Assembly: GCA_030390025.1 (NCBI GenBank)
Contig: CM059431.1
Span: 148,802,001-148,866,000, forward strand
Reading direction: 5' to 3'
Source of the DNA: Squalus acanthias
Taxonomy: Eukaryota
DNA: 64,000 bases
Part shown: positions 3,544 to 62,104 of the stretch, one piece after another
Layout: each line of letters begins with the position of its first letter
How positions within the stretch are numbered: the first letter of the stretch is position 1
The notes under the pieces: model-generated
What the model was told of the DNA's origin: nothing
Databases searched by the model: none
The model's input: the letters and a program-made list of their open reading frames with translations, nothing else
Position numbers and translations under genes: made by a program

Positions 3544-3673
3544 AAACAAAAGCAAATTACTGCGGATGCTGGAAATCTGAAATAAGAACAGAAAATGCTT
3601 TAAATACTCAGCAGATCAGGCAGCATCTGTGGAGAGAGATGAGAGTTAACGTTTCAGGTCGATGACCTTTCGT
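3544..3673 (-). mobile_element. Short Penelope-type terminal (pLTR) fragment with 10-bp TSD
   Basis: CATTCGGTGA flanks at 3534-3543 and 3674-3683; body matches the tail at 5180-5250 in reverse complement. Confidence 0.7.
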
Positions 3674-18344: not shown

Positions 18345-21296
18345 TCATGTCCAAATTCCTGCCCGCTCCCCGTACCCCTTAATGCCCTTTACTTCTCGGA
18401 AACTGTCTATTTCTGTTTTAAATTTATTTAATGATGTAGCTTCTACAGCTTTTTGTGGCAGCATATTCCATGGACCTACCACCCTCTGAGTGAAGTAGTT
18501 CCTCCTCATCTCAGTTTTGAAAGAGCAGCCCCTTATTCTAAGACTATGTCCCCTAGTTCTAGTCTCACCCGTCATCGGGAACATCCTCCCCGCATCCACC
18601 CGATCCAACCCCTTCACAATCTTATATGTTTCAATAAGATCGCCTCTCATTCTTCTGAACTCCAATGAGTAGAGTCCCAATCTACCCAACCTCTCCTCAT
18701 ATGACCACCCCCTCATCCCCGGGATTAACCGAGTGAACCTTTTTTGCACTGCCTCGAGAGCAAGGATGTCTTTCCTTAAGTAAGGACACCAAAACTGTAT
18801 GCAGTATTCCAGGTGCGGTCTCACCAATACCTTGTACAACTGAAGCAATACCTCCCTATTTTTATATTCTATCCCCCTAGCAATGAAAGCCAACATTCCA
18901 TTTGCCTTCTTAATCACTTGGTGCACCTGCATACTAACCTTTTGAGTTTCGTGCACCAGGACCCCCAGATCCCTTTGCACTTCAGTACTCTCCAGTTTCT
19001 TGCCATTAAGATAATAAAGTGCTCTAGGATTTTTCCTGCCAAAGTGCATCACCTCACACTTTCCAGTGTTGTATTCCATCTGCCAAATCTCTGCCCAATT
19101 ACTTAGCCTGTCTATGTCCCCTTGCAGGTTTTTTATGTCCTCCTCACTCACTACTTTCCCTCCCATCTTTGTATCATCTGCAAATTTTGATATGTTACAC
19201 TTGGTCCCTTCCTCCAAATCGTTAATATAGATTGTAAAGAGTTGGGGAACCAGCACTGACCCCTGTGGAACACCACTAGTTACTGATTGCCAGTCTGAGA
19301 ATGAACCATTTATCCCAACTCTTTGCTTTCTGTTAGATAGCCAATCCTCTATCCATGCCAGAATATTACCCCCAATCCCGTGATTTTTTACCTTAAGCAA
19401 TAATCTTTTGTGTGGCACCTTGTCAAATGCCTTTTGGAAGTCTAAATACACTACGTCCACTGGTTCCCCTTTATCCACTCTATATGTTACTTCCTCAAAG
19501 AACTCCAGCAAATTTGTCAAACATGACTTCCCCTTCGTAAAACCATGCTGACTTTGTCCTATTAAATTATGATTATCCAAATGTCCTGTTACTGTTTCCT
19601 TAATAATGGACTCCAAAATTTTACCTACCACAGATGTTAGGCTAACCGGTCTATAGTTACCAGCCTTCTGTCTACTGCCCTTTTTAAATAAGGGTGTTAC
19701 ATTAGCAGTTTTCCAGTCTGCCGGGACCTTAGCGGAATCCAGGGAGTTTTGAAAAATTATTACCAATGCATCTACAATCCCTACCGCCACTTCCTTCAAG
19801 ACTCTAGGATGTAAGCCATCAGGTCCAGGTGATTTATCCGCCTTGAGTCCCATTATTTTTCCGAGTACCACTTCCTTAGTGATTTTGATCGTGTTTAGCT
19901 CCTCTCCCCCTATAGCCCACTGTTTGTCCAGTGTTGGGATATTCCTTGTATCCTCTACTGTAAAGACTGATACAAAATATTCATTCAGTGTTTTTGCCAT
20001 CTCCATATTTCCCACCATTAATTTCCCGGTCTCATCCTCTAAGGGACCAACATTTACTTTAGCCACCCTTTTTCTTTTTATATAACTATAAAAACTCTTA
20101 CTATCTGTTTTTATATTTTTTGCTAATTTACTTTCATAATCTATCTTCCCTTTCTTAATCAATCTTTTTGTTATTTTTTGCTGCCTTTTAAAGTTTTCCC
20201 AATCCTCTGTCCTCCCACTAGATTTCGCTACCTTATATGCCCTTGTTTTTAGTCGAATACTATCCTTAATTTCTTTACTTAGCCACGGATGACTGTCCTT
20301 TCTTTTACACCCTTTTCTTTTCAGTGGAATATATATTTTTTGGAAGTTGTAAAATAACTCCTTGAATGTACACCACTGATCATGTGTCGTCTTACCATTT
20401 AATCTATTTTCCCAATCCACTCTACTCAATTCCGCTCGCATACCTTCATAGTCTCCTTTATTCAAGCTTAGCGCGCTTGTTTGAGATCCAACCTTCTCAC
20501 CCTCGAATTGAATATGGAGTTCAACCATGTTATGGTCACTCATTCCAAGGGGATCCTTTACTAGGACATTTTTAATTAATCCTGTCTCGTTACACAGGAC
20601 CAGATCTAAGGTTGCTTGCCCCCTGGTCGGTTCAGTTACATACTGCTCAAGAAACCCATCCCTAATACACTCAATGAACTCATCCTCAAGGCAGCCCTGC
20701 CCCATTTGATTTGTCCAATGAATATGATAGTTAAAATCCCCCATAATTATAGATGTTCCCTTATTACATGCCTCAACTATTTCCTGATTGATACTCCGTC
20801 CAACAGAGTTGCAACTGTTCGGAGGCCTATAGACTACGCCCACTAGTATTTTTTTCCCCTTATTATTCCTTATCTCCACCCAAACTGTTTCATTATCATG
20901 ATTTTTTGACCCAATATCATTACTCTGTATTACAGTGATTCCTTCCTTTATTAACATAGCCACCCCACCTCCCCTTCCTTCCTGCCTGTCCTTCCTGATC
21001 GTTAAATAACCTGGTATGTTTAATTCCCAGGCATTGTCACCCTGCAGCCATGTTTCTGTAATGGCCACAATATCATAACCATATGTAGTTATTTGTGCCA
21101 TTAACTCGTCTATTTTGTTACGAATGCTACGTGCATTCAGATAGAGAACTTTCAAATATGCTTTGTGGCACTTAGTTCCTGCTTTTTCACTTTTTACCAC
21201 TTTACCTTTTACTCCACACACTCTGTCCCTTCCTGCCACGCTCTGATTTGTGATTCCCCTACTGCTACCTATGTCTATGACCCTCTCTGATGTCAT
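18345..21296 (-). CDS. LINE ORF2: AP endonuclease plus reverse transcriptase (983 aa, uninterrupted)
   Basis: ATG at 21296; YLNARS, ITETW, MGDFN, SDHN (APE); QHGF, YLDFQKAFD, GVPQGSVL, KFADD (RT). Confidence 0.97.
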   Translation of the reverse strand: MTSERVIDIGSSRGITNQSVAGRDRVCGVKGKVVKSEKAGTKCHKAYLKVLYLNARSIRNKIDELMAQITTYGYDIVAITETWLQGDNAWELNIPGYLTIRKDRQEGRGGGVAMLIKEGITVIQSNDIGSKNHDNETVWVEIRNNKGKKILVGVVYRPPNSCNSVGRSINQEIVEACNKGTSIIMGDFNYHIHWTNQMGQGCLEDEFIECIRDGFLEQYVTEPTRGQATLDLVLCNETGLIKNVLVKDPLGMSDHNMVELHIQFEGEKVGSQTSALSLNKGDYEGMRAELSRVDWENRLNGKTTHDQWCTFKELFYNFQKIYIPLKRKGCKRKDSHPWLSKEIKDSIRLKTRAYKVAKSSGRTEDWENFKRQQKITKRLIKKGKIDYESKLAKNIKTDSKSFYSYIKRKRVAKVNVGPLEDETGKLMVGNMEMAKTLNEYFVSVFTVEDTRNIPTLDKQWAIGGEELNTIKITKEVVLGKIMGLKADKSPGPDGLHPRVLKEVAVGIVDALVIIFQNSLDSAKVPADWKTANVTPLFKKGSRQKAGNYRPVSLTSVVGKILESIIKETVTGHLDNHNLIGQSQHGFTKGKSCLTNLLEFFEEVTYRVDKGEPVDVVYLDFQKAFDKVPHKRLLLKVKNHGIGGNILAWIEDWLSNRKQRVGINGSFSDWQSVTSGVPQGSVLVPQLFTIYINDLEEGTKCNISKFADDTKMGGKVVSEEDIKNLQGDIDRLSNWAEIWQMEYNTGKCEVMHFGRKNPRALYYLNGKKLESTEVQRDLGVLVHETQKVSMQVHQVIKKANGMLAFIARGIEYKNREVLLQLYKVLVRPHLEYCIQFWCPYLRKDILALEAVQKRFTRLIPGMRGWSYEERLGRLGLYSLEFRRMRGDLIETYKIVKGLDRVDAGRMFPMTGETRTRGHSLRIRGCSFKTEMRRNYFTQRVVGPWNMLPQKAVEATSLNKFKTEIDSFREVKGIKGYGERAGIWT

Positions 21297-21334
21297 TTTT
21301 ATTTTTGCTCTCTTGAAACCTCACCCCCCACTAA

Positions 21335-38329: not shown

Positions 38330-39845
38330 TCCGGGTGATATAGAGGGAGCCCTACTCTTTATCTAAACCGTGCTGTACCTGCCCTGCGAGCGCTCGATGC
38401 TGACACTCGGTATAAAGTGGGGTCACACTGTCAGGGTAATGTAGAGGGAGCTCTACATTAGTGCGAGGTTATCCACTTTGGTGTCAAAAACAGAAAGGCA
38501 GACTATTATCTGAATGGCAATAGATTGGGAGAAGGGGAAGTGCAACGAGACCTGGGTGTCCTTGTGCACCAGTCGCTGAAAGTAAGCATGCAGGTGCAGC
38601 AGGCGGTGAATAAGGCAAATGGTATGTTGGCCTTCATAGCGAAAGGGTTTGAGTATAGGAACAGGGATGTCCTGCTGCAGTTGTACAGGGCCTTGGTGAG
38701 ACCACACCTTGAGTACTGTGTGCAGTTTTGGTCGCCTTATCTGAGGAAGGATGTTCTTGCCATGGAAGGAGTTCAGCGAAGATTCAAAAGGCTGATACCT
38801 GGGATGGCAGGAATGACATATGAGGAGAGATTGGGTCGATTGGGCATATACTCACTGGAGTATAGAAGAATGAGAGGGGATCTCATCGAAACATATAAAA
38901 TTCTGACAGGTCTGGACAAACTAGATGCAGGAAGAATGTTCCCGATGGTCGGAGAGTCCAGAACCAGGTGTCATAATCTACGGATAACGGGTAAACCATT
39001 TAGGACAGAAATGAGGAAGAATTTCTTCACCCAGAGAGTGGTGAACCTGTGGAATTCTCTACCACAGAAGGTAGTTGAGGCGAAGTCATTAAATACATTC
39101 AAGGATGAGTTAGATATATTTCTTAAAGCTAAAGGTATCAAGGGATATGGGGAGAAGGCAGGTACAGGGTACTGAGTTTAGATGATCAGCCATGATCTCA
39201 TCGAATGGCGGAGCAGGCTCGAGGGGCCGAATGGCCTACTCCTGCTCCTATCTTCTATGTTTCTATGTATGTTTCTATGTTACACTTTATCTAAACCGTG
39301 CTGTTCCTGCCCTGGGAGCGCCCAAAGCTGACACTCGGTATAAAGTGGGGTCACACTGTCAGGGTAATGTAGAGTGATCTCTACACTGTATCTAACCCGT
39401 GCTGTACCTGTCGAGGGAGGGCTAGATACTGAGATTGGGAATAAAGTGGCGGATACTCTGTCAAGGTAATGTAGAATGAGCTCTACACTGTTCTCACCCA
39501 TGCTGCACCGGCCATGGGAGCGTTAGATGCTGACACTGAGTATATCTTGGGGATACCTAGTCAGGGTAATGTAAAGGGAACTCTACACCATTTCAACCCC
39601 ATGTGCTACCTGCTCTGTGAGCGCGGGTTGCTGACACTGTGTATAATGTGTGTCACACCGTCAGGGTAATGTAGAGGGAGCTCTACACTGTGTCTATCCC
39701 GTGCTCTTCCTGCCCTGGGAGCGCACGATGATGACACTGGGTTTGATGTGGGGTACACACTTTCAAGGTAATATAGAGGGAGCTCTACACTGTATCTTAC
39801 CCGTGCTGCTGTACCTGCCCTGGGAGCGCGCGATGCTGACTCTGG
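38330..39845. repeat. ~100-bp tandem repeat interrupted by a CR1 3' fragment (+, ~38460-39280)
   Basis: GTAGAGGGAGCTCTACACTG-like motif at ~38340, 38441, 39369, 39471, 39571, 39671, 39773; CR1 ORF 38525-39175. Confidence 0.88.
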
Positions 39846-42752: not shown

Positions 42753-45700
42753 ATCATAGAATCATAGAAGATAGGAGCAGGAGTAGGCCATTCCGCCCCT
42801 CTATCCTGCTCCGCCATTCAATGCGATCATGGCTGATCATCCAAATTCAGTACCCTGTTCCTGCTTTCTCCCCATATCCCTTGATCCCTTTAGCCTTAAG
42901 AAATATATCCAACTCATTCTTGAATCTATTGCATGAATTGGCCTCGAGTGCCTTCTGTGGCAGAGAATTCAACAGCTTCACCACTCTCTGGGTGAAGAAA
43001 TTCCTCCTCAATTCTGTCCTAAATGGCTTAGCCCTTATCCTGAGACTGTGACCCCTGGTTCTTGACTCCCCGACCATCGGGAACATCCTTCCTGCATCTA
43101 GTTTGTCCTGTCCTGTCAGAATTTTATAAGTTTCAATGAGATCCCCTCTCATTCTTCTGAACTCCAGCGGGTATAAGCCCAATCGACCCAATCTCTCCTC
43201 ATACGTCATTCCTGCCATCCCAGGTATCAGCCTTCTGAATCTTCGCTGAACTCCTTCCATGGCAAGAACATCCTTCCTCAGATAAGGCGACCAAAATTGC
43301 ACACAGTACTCAAGGTGTGGTCTCACCAAGGCCCTGTACAACTGCAGCAAGACATCCTTGTTCCTGTACTCAAACCCTCTCGCTATGAAGGCCAACATAC
43401 CATTTGCCTTCTTAACCGCATGCTGCACCTGCATGCTTACATTCAGCGACTGGTGCACAAGGACACCCAGGTCTCGTTGCATTTCCCCTTCTCCCAATCT
43501 ATTGCAATTCAGATACAAATCTACTTTCTGTTTTTGACACCAAAGTTGATAACCTCGCATTTATCCACGTTATATTGCATCTGCCACGTTTCTGCCCAAT
43601 CACCCAACCTGTCATCCTGGAGTTTCTCGGCATCTTCCTCGCAGCACACACGCCTACCCAGTTTTATATCATCTGCAAACTTGGAGAAATTACATCTAGT
43701 TCCCTTGTCTAGATCATTAATATATATTGTGAATAGCTGGTGTCCAAAGACCGATCCCTGCGGTACCCCACTAGTCACTGCCTGCCACTCGGAAAAAGAC
43801 CCGTTTATACCAACACTTTGCTTTCTGTCTGCCAACCAGTTCACTATCCAAGTCAATAACTTGCCCCCAATCCCATGTGCCTTAACTCTACACGCTAATC
43901 TCTTATGCGGGACCTTATCCAAAGCCTTTTGGAATTCCAAATACACCACATCCACTGGTTCTCCCTTATCTATTTTACCAGTTACATCCTCAAAAAATTC
44001 CAGTAGATTATTCAAGCATGATTTACCTTTCGTAAATCCATGTTGACTTTGTCCGATCCTGTCACTGTTTTCCAAGTGCTCAGCTATTACATCTTTTATA
44101 ATGGACTCTAGCATGTTCCCCACTACCGATGTCAGGCTTACCGGTCTGTAATTATCCGTTTTCTCTCTACCACCCTTTTTGAATAGTGGGATAACATTAG
44201 CTACCCTCCAATCCATGGGTAGTGTTTTAGATTCCATCGAATGTTGGAAGATGATCAGCAATGCATCTACTATTTCTAGGGCCACTTCCTTTAGTACCTA
44301 GGATATAGATTATCAGGCCCTGGGGACTTATCGGCCTTCAATCCCTTCAATTTCCCTAACGCCATTTCCCTACAAATACTGATTTATTTCAGTTCCTCTC
44401 TTTGATCAGACCCTATGTTCTCCAACATCTCTGGGAGATTACTTGTATCCTCCTTTGTGAAGCCAGAACCAAAATATGCATTTAATTGGTCTGACATTTC
44501 TTTGTTCCCCATTATAAGTTCCCCTGATTCTGACTGCAAGGGACCTATGCTTGATTTCACTAATCTTTTTCTTCTGTTCACATTTATATAAAAGCTTTCA
44601 CAGTCAGTTTTTAAATTCACCGCCAGCTTACTCTCGTATTCTATTTTCCCCTTCTTAATTAATCCCTTTGTCCTCCTTTGTTCAATCTTAAACTGCTCCC
44701 AATTCTCAGGGTTTCTGCTTTTTCTGGACAATTTATATGCGCTCTCCTTGGATCTTATGCTATCCCTAATTTCCCTTGTTAGCCAAGGTTGAGTCACACT
44801 TTTTGTTTTATTCTTATGCCAAACCGAGATGAACAAATTCTGTAGTTCGTCCATGTGTTCTTTGATGGTTTGCCATTGCCTATCCACCGTCAACCCTTTG
44901 AGTGGCATTCCCTAATCAATCGTACCAAACTCGCACCTCATACCATCGTAGTTTCCTTTATTTATATTCAGGACCCAAGTCTCTGAGTCGACTACTTCAC
45001 TCTCCATCCTAATGAAGTATTGTATCATATTATGATCGCTCCGACCCAAGGGGCCTCGCACAACAAGATTGCTAATTAATCCTTTTTCATTACATAATAC
45101 CCAGTCTAAGATGGCCTGATCTCTGGTTGGTTCCTCGGCATATTGTTCCAGGAAACCATCCCGTAAACACTCCAGGAATTCGTCCTCCATAGTAGTGTTA
45201 CCAATTTGGTTAGCCCAATCTATATGTAGATTAAAGTCACCCATGATGGCTGCTGTGCCCTTATTGCACGCTTCTCTAATTTCCCTTTTAATCCCATCCC
45301 CAAACTCTGCATTACTATTTGGAGGTCGACGTATCACTCCCACTAACGTTTTCTGCCCCTTGTTATTTCTCAGTTCAAATCATACAGAATCCACATCATC
45401 AGAGCTAATATCCTTCCTTTCAATTTTGTTAATCCCCTCTTTAACCAGCAAAGCTACCGCGCCTCCCTTCCTTTTTGCCTATCTTTCCTGAATATTGAGT
45501 GCCCCTGGATGTTGAGTTCCCAGCCCTGGCCACCCTGGAGCCATGTTTCGGTTATTCCAATCAAATTATATTCGTTTACCTCTATTTGCGCAGCTAATTC
45601 ATCCACCATGATCCCAATGCTCCTTGCATTAAGACACAAAGCCTGCAGGCTTGTTTTTTTTACCGCTCTTAGACCTATTAGAATTAGTATTTACTGTGGC

Positions 45701-47020
45701 CATGTTTGATTTAAAGCAATGTTTTCTCTGACTGCCACTTTTGTTTTTCTCCTTCCTCTCTTTTGCTTTTATCCTTGTTTCCCTTTCCTCTGTCTCCCTG
45801 CTCAGGTTCCCAACCCCCTGCCATTTCAGTTTAAACCCCCCCCCCCCCCCCCCCAGAGCACTAGCAAACACTCCCCCTAGGACATCGGTCCCGGCCCTGA
45901 CCAGGTGTAGACTGTCCGGTTTGTACTGGTCCCACCTCCCACATAACCGGTTCCAATGCCCCAGGAATTTGAATCCCTCCCCCTTGCACCATTCCTCTAG
46001 CCACGTATTCATTTGAAATATCCTTCTATTTCTACTCTGACTAGCACGTGGAACTGGTAGCAATCCTGAGATTACTACCTTTGAGGTCCTATTTTTAATT
46101 TACCTCCTAACACCCTATATTCTGCTTTTAGTACCTCATCCCGTTGTTTTACCTATATCGTTGGTACCTATATGCACCATAGCAACTGGCTGTTCACCCT
46201 CCCTTTCCGAAATGCTCTGTAGCCGCTCTGAGACATCCTTGACCCTTGCACCAGGGAGGCAACATACCATCCTGGTGTCTCGTTTGCGGCCGCAGAAACG
46301 CCTATCTATTCCCCTTACAATAGAATCCCCTATCTCTATAGCTGGCCCACACTTTTTCCTCCCATCCTGTGCAGCAGAACCACCTACGGTGCAAGGAAGT
46401 TGGCTGCTGCTGTCTTCCCCTGATAAGCCATCTCCCTCAACAATATCCAAAGCAATATATCTGTTTGGGAGGGGGATGGCCACAGGAGACCCCTGCACTG
46501 CCTGCCTGCGCCTATTACTCTGCCTGGTGGTCACCCATTCCCATCCTGCCTGTACACCATTTACCTGCGGTGTGACCAACTCCCTAAACGTGCTATCCAC
46601 GATGTGCTCAGAATCGCGAATGCTCCAATATGCATCCATTCGCAGCTCCAGCGCCGCAATGCGGTCTGTCAGTAGCTGCAGCTGGAAAAACCTCCTGCAC
46701 ACATGGTTGTCAGGGACACAGGAAGTGTCCCTGATTTCTCACATAGTGCAGGAAGAGCATGTCACAGCACCGAGCTCACCTGCCATGACTTATCCTTTAA
46801 TTAATTAATTAAAATTAAATTAAAATTAAATGGATGCCACCAATTACACTAGAATTAAGTGATATACTCAAATGCCCTTGCTTAACAGTAGTCCCCGCTA
46901 CACAAAGAGACCGTAGAAACCACAACATTAAAGTTTAGAAAAATTGAGAAAGAAAACACTCACCAACCAATCACTTACCTGCTTTTTGGTGCTATCACAC
47001 TACAAATACTATTTGCATAC
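42753..47020 (-). mobile_element. Near full-length degenerate CR1 LINE; extreme 5' end probably displaced to 56129-56153 by the LTR element
   Basis: ORF1 (CRRFFQLQLL, IGDSIVRG, HIGTND) at ~45850-46787; APE-RT fragments at 42847-45640; (TTCTATGA) tail. Confidence 0.92.
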
Positions 47021-48625
47021 TGTAGAGTTTCGCAATTATCGCGATTCTAATAATATGAGAGAAGCAGGTTCAATTGATCATTTTTATTGAACGGAATGCT
47101 GTCTTGAAAATAAAGGGTACAGAAGCCTGTAAAATGGCCGCCGCGCATCATGGCAGAAGCTTCCAGTGACACAGTGGGCAGACAAGATGGCGTCGAATAT
47201 ACATTCAGTATGAGATCATACCTGGTACAAATTAAAAAGGCAGGATGCAACCCGTTTGCATTTTTGGACAATAGCAATGATATAAGTGCTTGAATCGTTT
47301 CATATGCACAGTAAGAATCATTGAACTGGGCCATCGAAAGCCTATCCAGACACATCAATACACAAATACCCCCCGGCTCAACAATGAGAGAGACATTGGC
47401 GGGTGATTAAGCCAGTATTCAGGGGGTCCCAAAACCAGTTGAGGAGACGATTCATACACATCCTGGCTGACTCAACAATGAAGAAGGCATTAACGGATAG
47501 TTGGCTAGTTTCAGGTGATACCGAAACCCGTTAAGAAGATAATAGCCCCATGCTGGGAGTTTTGGGCGCCAAAATCACACAAAGGATAACATTTAGATTT
47601 GAGCGGGAGATAAGGCCGACAAAACTGTATAACTATAGGGGACAAATGTCCATCGGGCTCTTGGCTCTTGACTCTTCGCTCTTGTCGTGTGCTGGTTTCT
47701 TCGGCGGGGCTGCGCTGGTCGGTTATTCGAGTGTTGGGTGGAGTTCAATCGGAACGAGCCACCTCGACACGTCGGTAAACGGTGTCCAGACCCATCAGGG
47801 CAACACAGCGGTGTGTTCCCGAGTGAGGCCCGAGTGACGAGAAGAAAGACGAGAAGAAAGACGAGAAGAAATTCCACGTACCGCCACAGTCAGTAAACCC
47901 CGACCGCGCCCGAAGATAAACGGCAGAGTCCACCAGTTCGAATTCTACAGACTACTTCATGACCCGGTTTGAATTCCACAAACTACTTCATGACATCAGG
48001 GAGTCTGGCTTACCCTCCGGCTCTTTGAGCGGATAGCCTGAGCCATCCGCGATGAACTTTACCGGGGCCGTCTCGAGTGGACCCATTCGCGGGAGCGAGA
48101 GTTAACAAGTCGGGTGCAGAAACACTTACAGCCACGTGACAGTCAGGTGCTGCAGCGAAACGAGCTGAGAGCCTCATTTAAATTTCCGAAGTGAGCCGAG
48201 TGGTGAGCATGTATCCCGATCCTACAAATCCAGACGTAGTTTAGGTATATTAAGGGAGGGTGGTTTCTAAGATTAATGTATAATGTGTTCCCCCTTTTAC
48301 GATGTGTCATGTGTTCCCCATTTCCATAGACCAAGTTTTATAAACGTTTGTATACTGATAATCTCTTTGATCTGCGCCTATGACATGTATTTCATGATTT
48401 TAGACGCCATGCAATAAAGACATTCATTTCGTGCTATTCAACCAAGTCAATTTGAGTCTTTCTCTGCATCACTGCTCCTTGCATCTCAGTCCAGGTGTCA
48501 GAACCGTAAGGGCGAGTGGGTCGAACCACTCACAGGTTCTTATTGCAAAGGTCTGGCCGGAGACCAGAGCAAGCAATAGTACAGGCAACGAAAGCCTCAC
48601 CTCGCACCAGTCCGTGACCCTTACA
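47021..48625 (+). repeat. 5' LTR (1605 bp)
   Basis: TGTAGAG...CCTTACA; TATA-like TATATTAA at ~48246; AATAAA at 48413; internal (GACGAGAAGAAA)x3. Confidence 0.95.
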
Positions 48626-48629
48626 GAAA

Positions 48630-48647
48630 TGGCGACCGCGGCAGGAC
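48630..48647 (+). other. Primer binding site, tRNA-Arg(TCG)-type
   Basis: TGGCGACCGCGGCAGGAC 4 nt after the LTR; complementary to the vertebrate tRNA-Arg-TCG 3' end as recalled (GTCCTGCCGCGGTCG-CCA). Confidence 0.85.
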
Positions 48648-48700
48648 CCTGGCAGCAAGAGAGTAATGTCTTAGACCCAGGTTTGAATAAACGAAATGTA

Positions 48701-50428
48701 ATGGACGAAAAAGTAGCCGACTATGTTTTCGGGAATGTAACCCTGACCAAACAGTGGATATGTGACCTACTGACGGATAGGCGTCCGCTAGACGCAGCCA
48801 TCAGGTGGACAGGTAGCAGAGAATATAAGAAGTCAGTAGAGAAATCGGTCTGGTTGATGTGCTACAAAGAGCAAGTCCAACTTTCGGACCAGGTCATTGC
48901 AGCACAGACAGCTCAGATCAAAGAGTTAGACACAGAGATGGAGGAAAAGGTTATGGGAGGACAGAAACTGATTGCATCACTGAATGCGTTGCATCAGGAA
49001 CGCCAAATAGTAGCCAGCCACCACGAGGCTAGGATCGATTACTTAGACTGCCAGGTCACGGAAGCTAAGTTAAGTGAGGGAAAGATTAAAGAACGGTGTA
49101 TCCGCCTAGCTAACCAGATAAAGACCCAGGAAGAAAGTCTCAGGGGAGTTAGGGCGGCATACAAGATGGCTCTCGAGGATAGATCTGAGTGAGCCGACCA
49201 CAGCGTTTGCCAGAGAGAGATAGAGGACCTGAGAGAGGCCCTGAATAAGGCGAACGGCTTGGTGTGTTTCATCAGCCCGTCAGCGAGCCAGCCACAGGTA
49301 GCTAGGGAATTCCCAAAACCACTGCCAAGAAAAGCAGGTGTGGTACCAACCACCAAGCCCTCAGCGCCACCCAGCTATACGGAAACCTGGGTGAGGGAGG
49401 AAGCGGTAGAAATTGAGAAGGATGTTCCCGAGGTAGAACAAACCCCGGAGGTAGTGTCGAACGCGGCACCGATGTGTCCGGTCCGAGAACAAAAGCGGGG
49501 CCCGAACGGGGCAGATGGGGAAGACGGGACCCTTTTAAACCAACTTGTAGTGCCCCACAGCTCACAACAGCTGAGGGCAATGATCAGCCATGTCCGGAAA
49601 CTGTCAGAGTCAGGAGATCCTTCCGTTCATTTTAGAGAGGTAGAACAGACCGCAGCGATTAATGGCTGCGACGGGGAGGAAAAGACCAGAATGTTGCTGT
49701 TCTCTTTGGATAGCTCAATCCTTTAGTGTCTCTCCGACGAGAGCAAGAGGGGAGTTAGGGGCTATGAGGATTTACGGGACGAGGTCCTGGAAGTGTTGGG
49801 AGTGGATGACGAAGGTCCGTTTGTCAGACTGGGTCAGACAGTACAGATGGAGGGAGAACCCCCACGAGTTTTCGCCGAAAGGCTGTGGCCAGTATATCAG
49901 CGTAGCTGCCCAAGTACACCAGCGCGTCACAACCTGCACGGTGTCGAGAAAGCTCATTGGCTCAGGTGCGTAGTCGCCAACAGCTTGCCAGCCATCAGGG
50001 AGCAAGCCAAGGCGTGGTTTGATCCCACCAACCCCAATACAACGGAGGAGTCGGTCCTGAGTCAGCTCACCATAGGACATAGAAATACTAGAAGCACGGG
50101 AGCGCGTCCCCTTAAGAGAAAAGTGCATGAAGCAAAGCCCGCAGCTCCGGCTCAGAAAGAGTGGCATCAGGAGGGAAATCGCGCCCCACAAACCAATAGT
50201 GTTTGTTACGGGTGCGGGAAGGCAGGTCACTAGCGCAAAAACTGTAGGAATCCCTGGAAGGATTCCAAGGAGAAAGCTCCCGCAGTCCGAGCCCAAACGC
50301 CTGTCTCTGAGAGAGGAGCTGGTGTGCCTATCCATTACGACGCGATCGAGTCAATGTTAGGAGCCATGCGGTCTCTTATGACCTCACACGGAAAGGTAGC
50401 AACAGCCCCATACAACCCAGACTTCTGA
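48701..50428 (+). pseudogene. gag: gag-like gene (~575 aa) with 3 in-frame stops
   Basis: One frame across ORFs 48431/49259/49793; stops at 49190, 49724, 50231; N-terminal coiled coil, PSAP and PPSY late-domain-like motifs, capsid-like region, CYGCGKAGH*RKNC knuckle (50204-50245). Confidence 0.85.
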
Positions 50429-51469
50429 TTGGAACCGGCGCAGCCTGCCTACCTGTGTCCCCTTGAAAGACACGCACAGGAACAGACCTCCTGTAAGGAG
50501 GCCAGGTTAAATGAGCAGGCCTTACGGGAGGAGAACGCTCGCTTAATGGGGAAAATAGACGGGCTAGAAGGGCAGCTTAGAGACATAAAGGCAGCCTACA
50601 GGGTAGCCAGGAGCAGGGAGTATGAGGATTTAAACCATGGGCCCTGTGAGGAAAGTATAAAATGTCTGACCCAAGCCCTATCCAAAGCCAGAGGGATGGT
50701 TTGCTCAACAACCCCGGGGGAATTCAACACCCCGCAGTTGCAAGCCATGGTAGCAGAGTTGCCCAAACTAAAACAGAATAGAAATCTTCAGCCTCCAGCA
50801 GGCGATATTACACAGAATGCACAAGCAGGGGCGGTGGCCTGTCTTAGGGGAGGGGCCAGACCTGCGAGTGGGGACTCTCAGCCCCGGGTAGAACCGCAGG
50901 TCACGCAGGCCGGTAAAGCAGCCTGCGTGAGGGGAGAAGACATTCTGCAAAAGTGGAGGGTCTCTCCTTTTTCTTGGGATTCGGATGAGGAAGGGCCCGG
51001 AGGGCTCGACCAAGTTTGTGACCCGGTCGGAGAGGTGGTGGGGTCGGAGGACGGAGGTTCCACCCTCGACCCGAGCATAGGGGAGGTAGGGATTACGGGT
51101 GGAGATTCACCTACTGTTGAAACAAGTAGGGTGGAGTCGGAAACCGCAGATCCCGAGCCCAGGGGGGTGGAGCCAGGGGATACAGAACCGGCGGCTGTGG
51201 TGGGACCACAGGCGGTGACGGTGGAAGTCCCGGTCCCCGGTCCGTCGGCCCTGGAGGCCTTGCCCAAGGTGGCCCTCCGCAGGTCGAGTCGGACACCCCA
51301 GCACAGGAAGTTGTGGTCAGATCCCTCGTACACCCCCAGGTATAAGTCCAAGGCAGCCCAGGGAGGTCCCAGTTCCCGATCGGCAGCGACAGGCTGCGGC
51401 GGATCAAAGACAAGGGTCAGTGTCCCCCCGCCACGGGGAACAGCTCGCGGCAGCCTTCTCAGGAGTTAG
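50429..51469 (+). CDS. Open 346-codon ORF in frame after the gag stop; contains a diverged Gag coiled-coil copy and a low-complexity tail
   Basis: LRDIKAAYRVA...HGPCEESIKCLTQALSKARGMVC aligns with gag LRGVRAAYKMA...HSVCQREIEDLREALNKANGLVC; LRRSSRTPQ near the end; no PR, RT, RNase H or IN core motifs. Confidence 0.6.
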   Translation: MEPAQPAYLCPLERHAQEQTSCKEARLNEQALREENARLMGKIDGLEGQLRDIKAAYRVARSREYEDLNHGPCEESIKCLTQALSKARGMVCSTTPGEFNTPQLQAMVAELPKLKQNRNLQPPAGDITQNAQAGAVACLRGGARPASGDSQPRVEPQVTQAGKAACVRGEDILQKWRVSPFSWDSDEEGPGGLDQVCDPVGEVVGSEDGGSTLDPSIGEVGITGGDSPTVETSRVESETADPEPRGVEPGDTEPAAVVGPQAVTVEVPVPGPSALEALPKVALRRSSRTPQHRKLWSDPSYTPRYKSKAAQGGPSSRSAATGCGGSKTRVSVPPPRGTARGSLLRS

Positions 51470-51739
51470 CTAGGCCGCCCTGGGAACGGGCGGCGCTGTA
51501 CAGTAATTTTAGGAGGATAAGTTTAGGTATAGTGTTTTAATATCAGGTTGAGATTGTAGATTAATTTCATAAGTAAATGGTAAAATGATGGGAGTTAGTG
51601 ATAGGAATAGTTAAGGTCTATCCAGTATGCATGTCTTGTACGTGAGACGAGGTCAAGGGACCCGCTCACTCTTCACAAAAGCCAGAGACTGTTGGGAGGC
51701 TGGCTACATCATTTTATCTGATCACAGGAACCAGGAGAT

Positions 51740-54050
51740 ATGAATTGGATTCTTGTGGTGCTCGCGACGATCGGATATGGATTGGCCTATCGGGGCCTCA
51801 CCAAGAATGTCGTTGTGTTCGGTTGCTCCGGGGACACGGCCCCCATCACGACGGATGGGACCGGGAAGCGAGAGGCTGAGGAAAGCGCCACTTATTTCCA
51901 CAATGGAAGGTGGCCGGGATGGCTGGGAACGAATTCAACGGAATACTCCAGCGCATCCGGGTTTGCGTACAAAGAGACTTCTTTACTGTGTCCCAGGGTG
52001 AGGATCGTTGCAGCCAGAATCAGCGTCACCGTTGGCAAAAGGATTTGTTTGGTGTGCATTTTAAACGTCACATTGAGCCGATGGTGGTGGTTACGGAAGT
52101 TAAGCAAGACTATGAGAAATTCCTCGGACGAGTGGGAGCGATTGGGTAACAATACCCATCGGACAATTACGGGGACTAACGGACAAGTGAGAGTCTGTTG
52201 GGACAAATGGTGGGAACCGGATGAGGGAATATATGTTTGTATGTGGGGATCTACGTACGTTTGCCCCAAGGGTATATCCATATTTTTCCTACAACAGTGG
52301 CAGGATGCCGGGAAAGGGATGAGGTGGGACGTCAGCACCCGGGGGTGCGGAGCTCCACTCTCCCCGATCCCGGTAAACGCCACTGAACTCATCACGCGCC
52401 CACGCAAGTCCCCGCCCACGATTCCGGTGGCATTGGCTCAGGAGGAAGGGTGCCCTAAAACCACTAAGGGGCCCGGGAATGGTCTGTTACTGGTGCCAAC
52501 AGATCAGATACTGTATCAGGGGGTACATTACGCGGTGGCCTCGGTGATTCTAAATCTCACCGAGGTGCATTTGCCAGAATGGTGCCCCAAAGAAACGGAA
52601 AAATTGTACCAGGTCCTGTTAACAAACATGTTCAGGCAGTTTTATGAGTTCGATTTTGCAGAGGTTGACAAAACAAGCTAATACACCACACCACACGAAG
52701 TTTTGGGTCAGGTGGGGAGACAAAGAAGGGGTGCTGTGAACGATGTGTTCACTGCTTTTAATACGGGAACATCTGTGGTCAACGCTCTAGATAATGTAGA
52801 GCTGCAGACACAGATCAACGGTTTAAAGACACAGTTAAAGAGCATCGTCACAAATGAGAATAAAGTAGCAGGGTCTGAGTTACATAAGGACCAGGCCATG
52901 ACACTACACTTAAAAGAGATTATAGCAGAGCTGGAGAATCATGTGAGAACGGTAAATGCCCTGATCAGGGAAGATCGAAATGCATCCGATCAAGCTGCGC
53001 AGAACGAGGTGTGCGTGTTATACGGGTGTGGTTACTGGGCGAAGGCCGCAGTAATTTGGAGGATTTAAAACAAGGTTTGGTCCCGTCCTGGATAAGCAAC
53101 AAACACCTGCAGGCGCTACACCCTTTTCAGAACCCATTAAGCCCGTGCCAGCTCAGGCTAGCCTCAGAGGCATACCCAGTCCCAGTGGACTGCGGACACT
53201 CAAATCACACTATCATGGGTATAGTGGTACGGATGCCGGTGTTGGGCAACACAGCAAAGCCCGCCCCGGTGTACAGGGTGGAGAACATTGGACTCATTCA
53301 GGGGGGAGCCCACATTCGCTACGCAGCGGTCCCACCTTACGTCATCCGCTGGGAGCAAACGATGACAGGTACCGACCTCTCAGGTTGTCATAGCAGGGGA
53401 GCACACCTCATACTTGGTCCCCAGCACTTGAATGCCTTTTTAATACCACAATGCGGGTTCAGAACGGCTGGGGCGAAGCCCATGAATTGCACCATGGAAG
53501 CAATGACACAAGATCATGTGCCCCCACAGGTGGCATACATAGGGGGTGGAACGTATTGCGTTACCACTGCAGCGCAACACTACCAGCATGGACAGAACAG
53601 TCGGTGTCCGGTGAGTGACAGCAGTTTCTGTTTTAAACCCAGGGCTGAAGTTCAAGTGGCACAACAGCGAATTGTCCCAATTCCTGCACCCTCCACGGTT
53701 CACCTCACTGTTAAAGAGAATTTCACAGACTTGCAGCGATTCGTCGCGCATTTCGCGTACATCATTCCCCCTCTCCCTGAACACCTCACCAAGATTTTAA
53801 AAGCCGTCATGGTATCACAGAAACATTTTTACACCCTGGAACAGAAGACTCTAGAGATAGGGGCAGAGATATTGGACATAGTAACCCCACCGTGGTGGGA
53901 TCTGTTCACTAATATTGAAGTCCCGTAAGGATCAGGATAGCCTCCCACATTTTGGTAGTATGTCAAGTTGTAATTGTAGTGTACCTGTTGTTCGTGCACT
54001 GCAAAAGGGGCAAACGCCTCACGAGGCAGGAGAACACAGCGGAGTGGTAA
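51740..54050 (+). pseudogene. env: env-like glycoprotein (~770 aa): signal peptide, Ig-like domain, furin site, fusion peptide, heptad repeat, Cys-rich region, TM
   Basis: MNWILVVLATIGYGLA; RQRR|GAVNDVFTAFNTGTSVVNALD (52718-52729); TM IASHILVVCQVVIVVYLLFVHC then KRGKR; lesions: TAA at 52679, frameshifts at ~53024 and ~53928. Confidence 0.85.
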
Positions 54051-54477
54051 GAACGTTACGTGCGCGTGAACGAGGAAACTACTGCGTAAGCTGCCAGGAT
54101 AGTGCCCCTCCATTTTACCGTGTGTGTGTTGTAATTGTTGTAGTTATAAGCTTTTGTGGCTAAGTTTTTGGAACTGTTGTATTTTTAAAACAGTCGGTTT
54201 AATTGTTTTTCTTTTGTAATAAAACATGCATGTACAGGTAGTGCAAGAGGCATCGGCCTTTTGCACCTGGAAGGCGAATACGCAGTGTAAGTTAAAGGCA
54301 ATGCTGTCTATGATTGTCCAAGATAAACACAGTGTGATTTTTCTGGGAAATGAGGACTACATGTGTCGTGGGGGCCATAGATAGATTAATTACCGGGAAC
54401 GTTTGGATGTGGAGAATCGGGATAATTTTAATCAAAAGCATTTAATTGATATGATAAGCGGAGTTATTCGCATCAAC

Positions 54478-54486
54478 AGGAGGGAC
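54478..54486 (+). other. Polypurine tract
   Basis: AGGAGGGAC immediately before the 3' LTR. Confidence 0.65.
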
Positions 54487-56128
54487 TGTAGAGTTTCGCA
54501 ATTATCGCGATTCTAATAATATGAGAGAAGCAGGTTCAATTGATCATTTTTATTGAACGGAATGCTGTCTTGAAAATAAAGGGTACAGAAGCCTGCAAAA
54601 TGGCCGCCGCGCATCGTGGCAGAAGCTTCCAGAGACACAGTGGGCAGACAAGATGGCGTCGAATATACATTCAGTATGAGATCATACCTGGTACAAATTG
54701 AAAAGGCAGGATGCAACCCGTTTGCATTTTTGGACAATAGCAATGATATAAGTGCTTGAATCGTTTCATACGCACAGTAAGAATCATTGCACTGGGCCAT
54801 CGAAAGCCCATCCAGACACATCATTACACAAATACCCCCCCGGATCAACAATGAGAGAGACATTGGCGGGTGATTAAGCCAGTATTCAGGGGGTCCCAAA
54901 ACCAGTTGAGGAGACGATTCATACACATCCTGGCTGGCTCAACAATGAAGAAGGCATTAACGGATAGTTGGCCAGTTTCAGGTGATACCGAAACCCATTA
55001 AGAAGATAATCGCCCCATGCTGGGAGTTTTGGGCGCCAAAATCACACAAAGGATAACATTTAGATTTGAGCGGGAGATAAGGCCGACAAAACTGTATAAC
55101 TATAGGGGACAAATGTCCATCGGGCTCTTGGCTCTTGACTCTTCGCTCTTCGCTCTTGTCGTGTGCTGGTTTCTTCGGCGGGGCTGCGCTGGTCGGTATT
55201 CGAGTGTTGGGTGGATTTCAATCGGAACGAGCCACCTCGACATGGCAGGCAGCAGGGTACACCATCCCGATCGTCGGTAAACGGTGTCCGGACCCATCAG
55301 GGCAACACAGCGGTGTGTTCCCGAGCGAGGCCCGAGTGACGAGAAGAAAGACGAGAAGAAAGACGAGAAGAAATTCCACGTGCCGCCACGGTCAGTAAAC
55401 CCCGACCGCGCCCGAAGATAAACGGCAGAGTCCACCAGTTCGAATTCTACAGACTACTTCATGACCAGGTTTGAATTCCACAAACTAATTCATGACATCA
55501 GGGAGTTTGGCTTACCCTCCGGCTCTTTGAGCGGATAGCCTGAGCCATCCGCGACGAACTTTACCGGGGCCGTCTCGAGTGGACCCATTCGCGGCAGCGA
55601 GAGTAAACAAGTCGGGTGCAGAAACCCTTACAGCCACGTGACAGACAGGCGCTGCAGCGAAACGATCTGAGAGCCTCATTTTAAATTTCCGAAGTGAGCT
55701 GAGTGGTGAGCATGTTTCCCGATAATACAAATCCAGACGTAGTTTAGGTATATTAAGGGAGGGTGGTTTCTAAGGTTAATGTATAATGTGTTCACCCTTT
55801 TACGATGTGTCGTGTGTTCCCCATTTCCATAGACCAAGTTTAATAAATGTGTGTATACTGCTACTCTCTTTGATCTGCGCCTATGACATGTATTTCATGA
55901 TTTTAGACGCCATGCAATAAAGACATTCATTTCGTGCTATTCAACCAGGTCTATTTGAGTCGTTCTCTACATCACTGCTCCTTGCATCTAAGTGCAGATG
56001 TCAGAACCGTAATGGCGAGTGGGTCGAACCACTCACAGGTGCTTATTGCAAAAGTCTGTACGAAGACCAGAGCAAGAAATAGTAGAGGCATCGAAAGCCT
56101 CAGCTCGCACCAGTCCGTGACCCTTACA
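54487..56128 (+). repeat. 3' LTR (1642 bp)
   Basis: Colinear with the 5' LTR, a few percent substitutions by eye, plus a 7-bp duplication (~55144) and a ~30-bp extra segment (~55243-55271). Confidence 0.95.
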
Positions 56129-56389
56129 ATACCTCTCCCGGAACCTGGATTTTTAAGAGGGAGCTTTAATCTGTATCTAACCCATGCTGTAACTACCCTG
56201 GGAATTTTGATGGGACAGTGTAAAGGGAGGTTTATTGTCTATCTAACTCATGCTGTACCTATCGTGGCATTGTCTGGTGTGACAGTGCAGAGGAAGCTAT
56301 ATTCTGTGTGTCACCAGAGCAGCATTTGCCCTGGACGTGTTTGATGGTACAGTGTAGAGGGAGCTTTACTCTGTATCTCTGATATATCC

Positions 56390-59512: not shown

Positions 59513-60414
59513 TCATCCTTTAATGAATTTTACAATCAGAGTAAACGGATATTTCCCCACATTCTTCAACTGCTCTCTGAACTTAGTCTGGGTCACCGCG
59601 TAAATTCCAGTGTTTGTGCAGCAACTCAGCAGCTGCAGCATCAATCCAAATTCCTGTAAATAAAGAGGTGGACTTGCAGACCGAAACTCCACATACCACA
59701 TCCGGTTCCATATAGCAGACTCCATAAACGCTGCCCATAACAGGATGAAATTGCCCGAGATAACAAGAAGTAAAATGATGGATTTCCTGCGGCTCTCCAT
59801 CTCTGGGTCTCTGGGACACTCCCCACTGCTGGGACCCCGGAGTCTCCTGCGGGCTCTGCTGGCCACTAAAATGTGTCTGACGGTGACAGCATTGAGCAGC
59901 AGAATCACAAATAATGGGACCCCCGGGGTGAGAATATAATGAAGGAACTCGATTGTTCCCCAGACCCTTGACATCCAAAAATTGATTGTTACATAACAAA
60001 ACCAGGGGATGTTCTGAAGCTGATACCGATCTGTGAACATAAAATACCAGAAAATGTTCTTTGAACGGCTCAGCACAGTCACTGTTCCCAGAGCCACAGC
60101 CGCCGTTTTCTCCGTGCAATATTTAGTTTTCAGCTTCTGGCGACAAATGGCCAAAAATCGATCAAAGGTGAAAGTGACGGTGAACCAGACAGAACAATCT
60201 GCGGCTGCATAAAGCAGGACGGCATGGATATTACACACGGGGAGTGACAGTAAGAAAATAAATTGTTCCATATAAACAATTGGAATCTGCTTCAATATCA
60301 GGTCGAGGATAACGACCAGTAGATCCGCCGCTGCCATGGCCACCAGGTAGCGAGTGACACATTTGGAGAGACCGCACTTTCCCCGAGACAGGATCACAAT
60401 CGTCACTAAGTTCA
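59513..60414 (-). CDS. GPR139-like GPCR terminal coding exon, copy B
   Basis: Open frame; acceptor AG at 60416-60415; about 20 aa differences from copy A over ~300 aa. Confidence 0.88.
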
Positions 60415-62104
60415 CTGTGTGGAAGGGAAATAAACAGGGTAATTTTACATCAGGCTGGGAGGGGAAATAAACACGGAAATTATACATCAGGCTGGGAGAA
60501 AGAACAGCATTTTGATAGAATTCGGGGAGAAATCTGCAACTCATTAGCGACATTCAATGATATAATCTAATTCTATTACCTGTGGAGCTGAATACAGGAT
60601 TTATTGTAAGAATAATCGGGAATAGATTGTGGAATTCATAAATGAAACGGGGATAAATATAAGATGAAAGTAACAGATGTTTGAACAATGAGAGATTAAC
60701 TGATAGATCTGCCTTTATCCCAGCAGACAAAAGCACACCTCGACGTACCAGAGACACAAAGGACCAGAATCTTTCAGGAAGCCTTCGTGTCCCGGGATCA
60801 GTCAGCATTTGGAGCGGTGCAATTCGCTTCTGTGCTCTTGTGTTAGGGATGGGAAATTCCCGCTTTGATTACTGCTCCTGGTTAGAATAGTCATTATATT
60901 TAGAACTGAAAATGAATGCAACGGCAAAAAACAAACAGCGTGCAATAATTACTGGCAATTGTATTTAAAATGTACGGCTGTAATATGCAAATGTTAGATA
61001 ATAAATACAAGTGCACTGCAGTTATAAAGATAACTGGGCTGTAAGAAGTGATTTGAAGTTTTTAGTTTTCTACAGTTTTGTTGAAATACACAAATTGTGG
61101 CTCATTGAAAGGAAGATTTTCCAAATAACATTGCAAAGAATGGATTCTGAAATAAAATAAATAGTTATCCTTGACCAGGCAATATTCCACTAAATACACT
61201 TTTTAGGTTAATAATCAAGCGACTTATCCCACAGGCAACGAGCCGGCGAACGCTTTTGTAAAGTAACTGAACACAAATGGAAGAGATTTATCCTGTTGGT
61301 TTCCAATTTGTGCAGAGAATAGTAGTGGAGAAAATACGAAAGGATTTTCTTATCCTCAGTACTGCAGTTACAATCAGCTGGGATTGTTTATCGTGCAGTA
61401 CAGCAGGAGACAATAGAGCATGACTCTGCGTCTCACTGAGAGATCCACTGAACTGTGACAGACGGGCATGGACTCCAATTGTAAATTCAAAACAAAGATT
61501 GGAAATAAACGCATTGAAATATGGCTGACTGAACACTTTTTGAGATCTAAATTATCCTTGTAAACCTTTTCTAACCTTCAGAAGCAGTGCCACTGATGCA
61601 GAACTGGCGATGGTGGGGAAGGAGACACTGACTGGAACTGAATGATTAGCGGATATTTCAGACATTTAAAGATGTGGATGCGATCTGCCAGGATTTGTTC
61701 CTGTGACTCTGTGTCAGTAACCATACCGAGCATTCGGTGAAAACAAAATCAAATTACTGCGGATGCTGCAAAATCTGAAATAGGAACTGAAAGTGCTTTA
61801 AATGCTCAGCAGGTCAGGCAACATCTGTGGAGAGAGAGAGAGAGTTAACGTTACATGTCGATGACCTTTAGCCATGAGGTGAAAAGTCTCCTCAACCAAG
61901 AAAACGTCCTTCTGATTTGTTACAATGTGCAGTGCAGATAGCGAAACGAAATTCCTTAAGCATAGAGAGTCGTCCAATATCTTTTCTTGAGTTGAATATA
62001 AAACAATTGAATCTTGGTAAAACTGTATCAGCTTCAGAATCAATAGCTGACAGAAGAACGGATGGGATGGGGAATGATAAGGAGGGAAATACAGTTAAAC
62101 ATGA

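Follow-up and report, generated by a model that had tools for sequence, protein, structure and literature searches.

A pol-less, probably helper-dependent recombinant form of a class III endogenous retrovirus in the genome of Squalus acanthias

The endogenous retrovirus (ERV) described here occupies positions 47021 to 56128 of a 64,000-nucleotide stretch of Squalus acanthias contig CM059431.1, hereafter the window. It is a dead copy of an abundant, helper-dependent recombinant ERV form. Specifically, the element very probably derives from a class III, snakehead-retrovirus (SnRV)-like ERV in which a cassette was swapped in for pol. In the window copy, a 467-nt cassette (50392..50858, + strand) stands in place of the catalytic part of pol (approximately 3.75 kb). 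The element lacks the protease (PR), reverse transcriptase (RT), ribonuclease H (RH), and integrase (IN) core while keeping its long terminal repeats (LTRs), primer-binding site (PBS), and polypurine tract (PPT), the combination that defines a non-autonomous ERV. A sister family, B, carries the cassette as well, and same-aged pol-bearing copies of both B and the window's own family, A, occur in the one genome.

Pol-less and pol-bearing copies in one genome

Copies were retrieved from the genome (3.71 Gb searched) using a gag DNA query, and the best 40 of 2,593 candidates were scored: the window copy and 39 others. The preliminary description of this DNA suggested that the element may represent a non-autonomous, env-bearing, pol-less family dependent on a helper for Pol. 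As regards an amplified form in need of Pol in trans, this proposal was supported. The pol-less layout recurred in 22 of the 39 other copies, so the case in which every other copy has pol is false. The remaining 17 had no cassette, and 15 of these contained a pol frame of at least 400 amino acids (aa). Most cassette-free copies diverged from the window at 50391 and rejoined it at 50851 after approximately 3.75 kb. In one pol-bearing copy, a 1,437-aa frame directly followed the gag TGA and contained PR, RT, tether, two RNase H, integrase, and SH3 domains (Pfam).

Abundance was evaluated by genome-wide counts of 22-mer words, allowing at most one mismatch (controls, 0-1). The words were picked for 22/22, 50/53, and 41/41 matches among the fetched copies. 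The window-type junction was found at 503 sites across many contigs, the cassette at 2,080, RT at 1,971, and the A-type env at 3,614. A further count of 392 sites was dropped as a tally of pol-bearing copies: short-cassette pol-less copies share that word. Rather than the independent satellite family previously envisaged, the element is a recombinant form within a family that has roughly as many pol-bearing members.

At least 12 of 28 other pol-less copies had their own 4-bp target-site duplication (TSD), as judged by eye. Median Kimura two-parameter (K2P) distances between paired LTRs were 0.0176 for pol-less copies (29 rows) and 0.0180 for pol-bearing copies (9 of 14 tried; p=0.61). By their LTRs, pol-bearing copies of the same family are as old as the pol-less ones; therefore, helpers exist. 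Independent integrations and a contemporaneous autonomous partner, as expected of a non-autonomous form, were both found. Absolute dating was rejected because the two rates used in the cited part of PMC4422223 differ tenfold: the median LTR distance of 0.018 corresponds to approximately 4 or 40 million years, which is unreliable.

One near-identical copy, L031, lies on the same contig approximately 1 Mb away on the opposite strand. It is a segmental duplicate of the window locus with the same TSD and flanks. Its interior is 99% identical to that of the window, and its LTR pair distance is 0.048 as compared to 0.036. That this match is merely a duplicate would suit a single post-insertion deletion in one provirus, an explanation with next to no probability. 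It is refuted by the 503 junction sites on many contigs and by the independent TSDs; moreover, the site holds foreign sequence and not a plain gap.

Some other copies are of note for their age or arrangement. Locus L120 is a diverged pol-less relative whose LTRs are just 0.0006 apart and which therefore reflects very recent activity. Its Gag and Env core are 62% and 91% identical, respectively, to the window proteins, a further sign of part exchange. Head-to-tail arrays of pol-less proviruses, spaced by 6.4-7.9 kb, were found at C3:64.29 Mb, at C11:61.70 Mb, and at L037/L038. Related contigs spanning the element were present in four sequencing runs, whose kind was guessed, and one bridged the window-type 3′ junction; these contigs bear on presence only. 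Comparison of the element with a phage collection yielded no match.

The cassette, its exchange between families, and selection

ORF2 (346 aa; 50429..51469, + strand) lies in frame after the gag stop. Sequence comparison indicates that this open reading frame is no new gene, consisting of the cassette coil fused to the family's Pol tail. Its final 206 codons are the low-complexity C-terminal tail of family-A Pol, from beyond the integrase SH3 domain (50851..51469, + strand). The original designation of the provirus as pol-less thus holds for the PR/RT/RH/IN core but not for 50851-51469. A six-frame Pfam search of the window element, with X at stops, returned 0 families at E<=0.01. The cassette itself comprises a B-type gag end, the gag stop, approximately 12 leftover pol codons, and a Gag-type coiled coil, joined in frame to the integrase tail.

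The boundaries of the cassette are sharp. In 50-nt bins, the identity of the window to pol-bearing A copies was 74-100% outside 50392-50850, and within this interval the two could not be aligned. Against family B, identity was 82-100% inside this interval and 44-80% in gag. The window gag is family-A sequence as far as approximately 50391; identity then switches from A to B at 50392 and back to A at 50851. The 3′ switch falls on an 8-nt word of both parents, the crossover word in which the cassette ends and which it has in common with the pol tail.

The cassette coil shares 38% aa identity with the coil of its own Gag and 41-42% with that of family-B Gag. A recent copy from the element's own gag was rejected based on this 38-42% aa identity and the near absence of a DNA match. 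A protein search for the coil donor returned none at E<=0.001 among 355 candidates, and a search of the host genome was dominated by cassette copies (best 150 of 7,331 scored).

Family B was recognized among copies fetched using the cassette coil, 5 of 20 of which carried other LTRs. The window LTR had no blastn match to one B LTR. Of 20 B copies fetched, 5 were pol-bearing, 13 had the cassette, and 2 had neither. When 20 pol-less copies of A were compared with 15 of B, identity was 95% in the cassette as against 66% in gag and 78% in env. Within families, cassette identity was 97.7% in A and 94.5% in B, though A gag is the more diverse; the cassette was nearly uniform over A backbones differing by up to 16% in gag. 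The gag end of the cassette resembles B, and one B copy has an intermediate gag end. Because of these gag ends and the greater diversity in B, sequence comparison makes transfer from B into A the most likely direction. At L102, L103, L107, L108, and L112, the RTs of A and B were 93% identical in aa as compared to 66% identity in gag DNA. Pol is therefore far closer than gag between the families and has itself probably moved between them.

Pol-less and pol-bearing copies interleaved on the gag trees of both families and also on env trees. For 37 near copies, the gag tree required 9 state changes, and a split between pol-bearing and pol-less copies was rejected by the approximately unbiased (AU) test (p=1.2e-7). 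The cassette therefore moved by recombination.

Selection was evaluated by classing variants as shared (at least three copies) or private, excluding CpG-type changes. In pol-less copies, omega for shared variants was 0.21, 0.52, and 0.38 in parts of gag and 0.24 and 0.13 in parts of env. Private variants in gag and env gave 0.68-0.97 (shared versus private, Fisher p 0.034 to 1.5e-6), and two non-coding controls lacked this contrast. Among shared cassette variants, A had 3 synonymous against 9 non-synonymous (omega 1.1) and B had 4 against 8 (omega 0.75), these counts being small. Omega for the Pol tail was 1.55. The cassette and Pol tail thus show no protein constraint, and shared variants in gag and env look purified. 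Shared indels numbered 4 in gag (3 in frame) and 2 in env (both frameshifts); 420 nt of 3′ non-coding sequence contained 22, many in homopolymers.

These data bear on how the pol-less form spreads. According to established retroviral biology, its RNA would be co-packaged with helper RNA, and helper Gag-Pol would reverse-transcribe and integrate it in trans. In mixed particles, template switching at short shared words could repeatedly shift the cassette onto new helper backbones. Amplified templates kept working gag and env; therefore, they either supplied Gag and Env to particles or took over newly selected genes from helpers with every swap.

Whether the cassette contributes to its own spread is a separate matter. 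The ORF2 product is predicted to be made only through read-through of the gag stop. An active selfish cassette might exploit this read-through: the resulting Gag-coil-tail fusion would promote, in cis, the packaging or copying of the RNA that encodes it, and the cassette would drive through autonomous lineages and turn them into satellites. We regard this possibility as doubtful. It would account for the retained gag stop and first pol codons and for the frame being kept by three or more distinct 3′ junctions and by a 5′ duplication. It would also account for the main ORF2 length classes, which relative to the window are 0, -24, +69, +177, and -15, all multiples of three. The net length of ORF2 was in frame in 24 of 40 copies, as were 4 of 7 called indel events. 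The near-uniformity of the cassette over diverged A backbones is likewise in its favour, and a cis-acting gag-pol fusion has been reported for the mouse intracisternal A particle (IAP) 1Δ1 in the cited part of PMC6466679. However, the omega values reveal no amino-acid constraint, the RNA after the stop is not unusually stable (z 0.08), and any advantage could come from shorter genome length alone. The broader proposal is somewhat less likely still: that a transferable selfish cassette spreads by template switching between families with unrelated LTRs, its cis-acting read-through Gag-coiled-coil fusion making satellites that supply Gag and Env and borrow Pol. If it were true, about half of several thousand proviruses would carry such a module.

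An even chance may be given to the cassette being inert filler. Helpers would then copy any pol deletion keeping the cis signals, the frame would be inherited from few founder crossovers, and gag and env would be refreshed from helpers. This reading is consistent with the neutral-looking cassette and tail and with the interleaving of pol-less and pol-bearing copies in the gag and env trees. It also has precedents in the bovine D-type ERVK, mouse early transposon (ETn), and recombinant koala retrovirus (RecKoRV) elements, which, in the cited passages of PMC10924933, spread with a swapped central segment whose product is unneeded. However, a single cassette, not assorted deletions, reached approximately as many sites as RT and crossed families, and several independent-looking length variants are all in frame.

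Several points weigh against the helper-dependent recombinant reading itself. The case rests on genome sequence. The 22-mer counts are of sites, not loci; the cassette word is counted twice in those copies that carry a 69-nt duplication, and the RT word in itself is no proof of a working helper. The sampled copies (40 of 2,593 candidates) are best-scoring matches, not random draws. In the present sample, the purifying signal in gag and env is confounded with helper ancestry; because backbones were exchanged with helpers, it may stem from helper lineages. The B-to-A direction depends on diversity, gag-end similarity, and one FastTree node of support 97. Finally, recombination leaves all trees approximate.

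Placement of the helper, its envelope, and related systems

The preliminary description proposed a loki-like or Gypsy-like virus. RT comparisons point elsewhere. The careful RT tree had 42 rows, 35 of the 121 in a quick first tree plus 7 added, and contained no foamy RT. Its loki anchors were two eel-type RTs assigned to Loki-Aro on the basis of a motif, not the 24 published consensus RTs. On this tree, a split supported at 100/98 separated loki-type and Gypsy RTs from the helper RT, which lay with the canonical retroviruses, and a grouping of the helper with the two loki-type RTs was rejected (AU p=0.011). The best matches of the helper RT were amphibian, coelacanth, and turtle elements at 45-53%, several bearing the name NYNRIN-like. 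These elements, SnRV, and the helper formed a basal polytomy. Among 13 viral contigs compared, the best was a 10,688-nt contig with an SnRV RT motif, 44% identity, and an Arg-like PBS, which we take to be of the Arg tRNA type. Against the PDB, MLV and foamy RTs (E 1e-67 to 1e-53) ranked ahead of Ty3 (1e-41). The RT thus did not behave as one of the Metaviridae (Ty3/Gypsy), nor did the pol-bearing copy have their single RNase H. An in-frame gag stop before pol and an Arg-type PBS were present, as in SnRV-like viruses. Based on the tree, the AU test, and the RT motif, the helper appears to be a class III virus of the SnRV-like grade, neither loki nor Gypsy, with its sister group left as a polytomy.

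A lokiretrovirus or Gypsy satellite is accordingly very improbable. It draws on the F-like Env, the N-terminal coiled coil of Gag, and the tether plus RNase H, all listed loki features in the cited part of PMC7947760; the pol-bearing copy does have the tether and RNase H. However, in the cited part of the PMC7947760 supplement, the loki RTs of Wang and Han show PFGY (92 times) where the helper has LPQGF, and the longer helper motif, LPQGFHNSP, occurs in none of them. A further loki criterion is an integrase closest to CGIN1/NYNRIN. The RT tree, the AU test, and the SnRV-type contig also argue against this origin, as does the record of lokiretroviruses in 0 of 6 chondrichthyan genomes in the cited part of PMC7947760.

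A tether and RNase H are common to all retroviruses. The Env requires more care. The window env piece matched PF00523 alone in Pfam (E=0.21), and its single-sequence fold was useless at a predicted local distance difference test (pLDDT) score of 31. A natural open env frame from another copy, folded with 20 relatives, gave pLDDT 61 and a predicted TM-score (pTM) of 0.44. In a structure search, this model matched the F protein of human parainfluenza virus 3 (hPIV3; E=2.3e-10, TM ~0.4), WEHV-1 Env (from a walleye epidermal hyperplasia virus; E=1.4e-7), and, weakly, feline foamy Env (E=2.1e-3). The F-type env of the preliminary description is thus borne out at the level of a predicted paramyxovirus-F-like core fold in a related copy. 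Pfam detected no fusion family in 16 Env relatives, and a PDB sequence search with the Env profile or Gag yielded nothing meaningful. Atlas features for Env (0.88, low recognition) are a lead only. The nearest named Env relatives were from sharks, a skate, and frogs. Relatedness of Env to paramyxo/pneumovirus F, a listed loki feature, was found but is not diagnostic because foamy and WEHV-1 Env match too. Foamy-virus Env has the paramyxo/pneumovirus F fold in the cited passages of PMC11468914, and the WEHV-1 and foamy matches of our model agree with these and with the Viro3D passages.

Related systems are compared below as described in the cited passages of each source. Cattle ERVK[2-1-LTR] D-type, mouse ETn/MusD, and koala RecKoRV/KoRV elements (PMC10924933) likewise have a central segment swapped for foreign retroelement sequence. 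They likewise coexist and recombine with competent copies and are mobilised in trans, which here is inferred. D-type elements are described without intact ORFs (PMC10924933), whereas the shark templates kept gag and env open. A further difference is that here the inserted sequence keeps the frame of gag read-through and is carried by two families whose LTRs do not align. Mouse IAP 1Δ1 (PMC6466679) likewise shows internal pol loss, a Gag-Pol-derived fusion frame, and trans-complementation. It is env-less and has a tested cis effect, whereas the shark form keeps env, is known from sequence alone, and has a fusion that requires stop read-through and contains a foreign coiled coil. Arabidopsis Athila (PMC2410132) is also pol-less with gag and env, purifying selection, and recombination between distant families; Athila, however, are plant Gypsy elements, and the shark form belongs to the vertebrate retroviruses and has an Env of the F fold.

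The SnRV kin, with clade Huo (PMC6001957) and elephant shark CmiERV lineage I (PMC4422223), provide the closest exogenous RT found (44%, YVDD). SnRV (PMC12193657, PMC13517186) has in common the in-frame gag stop before pol and the Arg-type PBS. An Env-profile match was weak (E=0.0012 in a small set), and the gag stop is UGA in the shark family versus UAG in SnRV. As compared to SnRV, the shark family has a short Env tail, and no 3′ accessory ORF was seen. Literature searches found no pol-less form of this kind among SnRV kin. Lokiretroviruses (PMC7947760) share the F-like Env, coiled-coil Gag, and dual RNase H, but the helper RT lies outside them. Zebrafish BHIKHARI (PMC12067270) is likewise pol-less, its consensus having gag only, without env. 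Foamy viruses (PMC11468914) have the Env fold in common, but the shark family differs by having a CCHC knuckle and by gag and pol that share a single read-through frame. No literature description of the shark family was found in searches that left Repbase, Dfam, and subscription journals outside.

Non-autonomous recombinant ERVs are well known, as are pol-less gag-env families under selection in Athila (cited part of PMC2410132). The present analysis adds to these a cassette that is nearly identical across families, repeated exchange of backbones, counts of the two forms that balance, and a contrast in selection. The thousands of loci constitute a large natural population in which one retrovirus amplified in helper and parasite forms side by side, with parts continually swapped between them. 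The parasite-of-parasite idea from cattle ERVs is testable here over a deep series of lineages, including whether the pol-less form pays with Gag and Env. With this family, cartilaginous fish and frogs gain a retrovirus whose Env is predicted to have the F fold and that is neither loki nor, apparently, foamy, foamy RT being outside the tree. Such an Env outside loki makes an F-like Env less useful for recognizing lokiretroviruses and is relevant to the question of an F-like ancestral retroviral Env.

Anatomy of the window copy and neighbouring sequence

The cis signals and the lightly damaged genes noted in the preliminary description were all recovered. All features are on the + strand except where strand does not apply. 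The TSD, ATAC, was read from the sequence at 47017..47020 and 56129..56132. The TG..CA LTRs span 1,605 nt (5′, 47021..48625) and 1,642 nt (3′, 54487..56128). Over 1,604 aligned bases, they differ by 57 mismatches plus five small indels (K2P 0.036), making this copy older than most. The short PPT (54477..54486, read from the sequence) has just ~8 purines preceding 54487.

The 18-nt PBS (48630..48647) is complementary to host tRNA-Arg(TCG). The tRNA 3′ end and T-arm complementary to it had 424 exact genome sites (control, 0), and 3 of 3 scanned loci with a primer-tRNA match were tRNA-Arg(TCG) genes. At 48629-48647, an ATG in the gag frame overlaps the PBS, and two PBS types alternate among copies. 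L150-L153, on contigs C23 and C26, are long tandem arrays of tRNA-Arg(TCG) and tRNA-Ser(GCT) with approximately 1.62-kb spacing.

The gag gene (48629..50428) encodes an N-terminal coiled coil, a capsid, and one CCHC knuckle in a single frame. It contains 3 internal stops (49190, 49724, and 50231) and terminates at TGA 50426-50428. The equivalent region of another copy gave a Gag/zf-CCHC feature match of 0.94. The env gene (51740..54050) encodes a signal peptide, a large N-terminal part, a furin site (RQRR, 52718-52729), a fusion peptide, the paramyxovirus-F-like core, and a transmembrane segment. It is interrupted by a single stop at 52679, and its frame changes twice, near 53.03 and 53.92 kb.

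Between pol and env, the site at 51529-51531 is empty in the window copy and filled in L033, L035, L039, L040, L046, L060, L066, L083, and L096. Of 10 inserts examined, 9 were at the identical position in different copies. The inserts occur in both orientations, belong to at least three sequence families, and have terminal inverted repeats and a 3-bp duplication; presumably, they are PIF/Harbinger-like. The position is apparently a site-specific DNA-transposon hotspot within the ERV.

The flanks of the element contain pieces of long interspersed nuclear elements at 18348-21320, 38462-39172, 42850-44297, and 46041-46805, which we take to be CR1/L2-like and which include, on the minus strand, an open frame of 991 aa. 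Many minisatellites of 20-43 nt are also present. Finally, a 346-aa frame occurs twice in the window, at 1310-2347 and 59516-60553.

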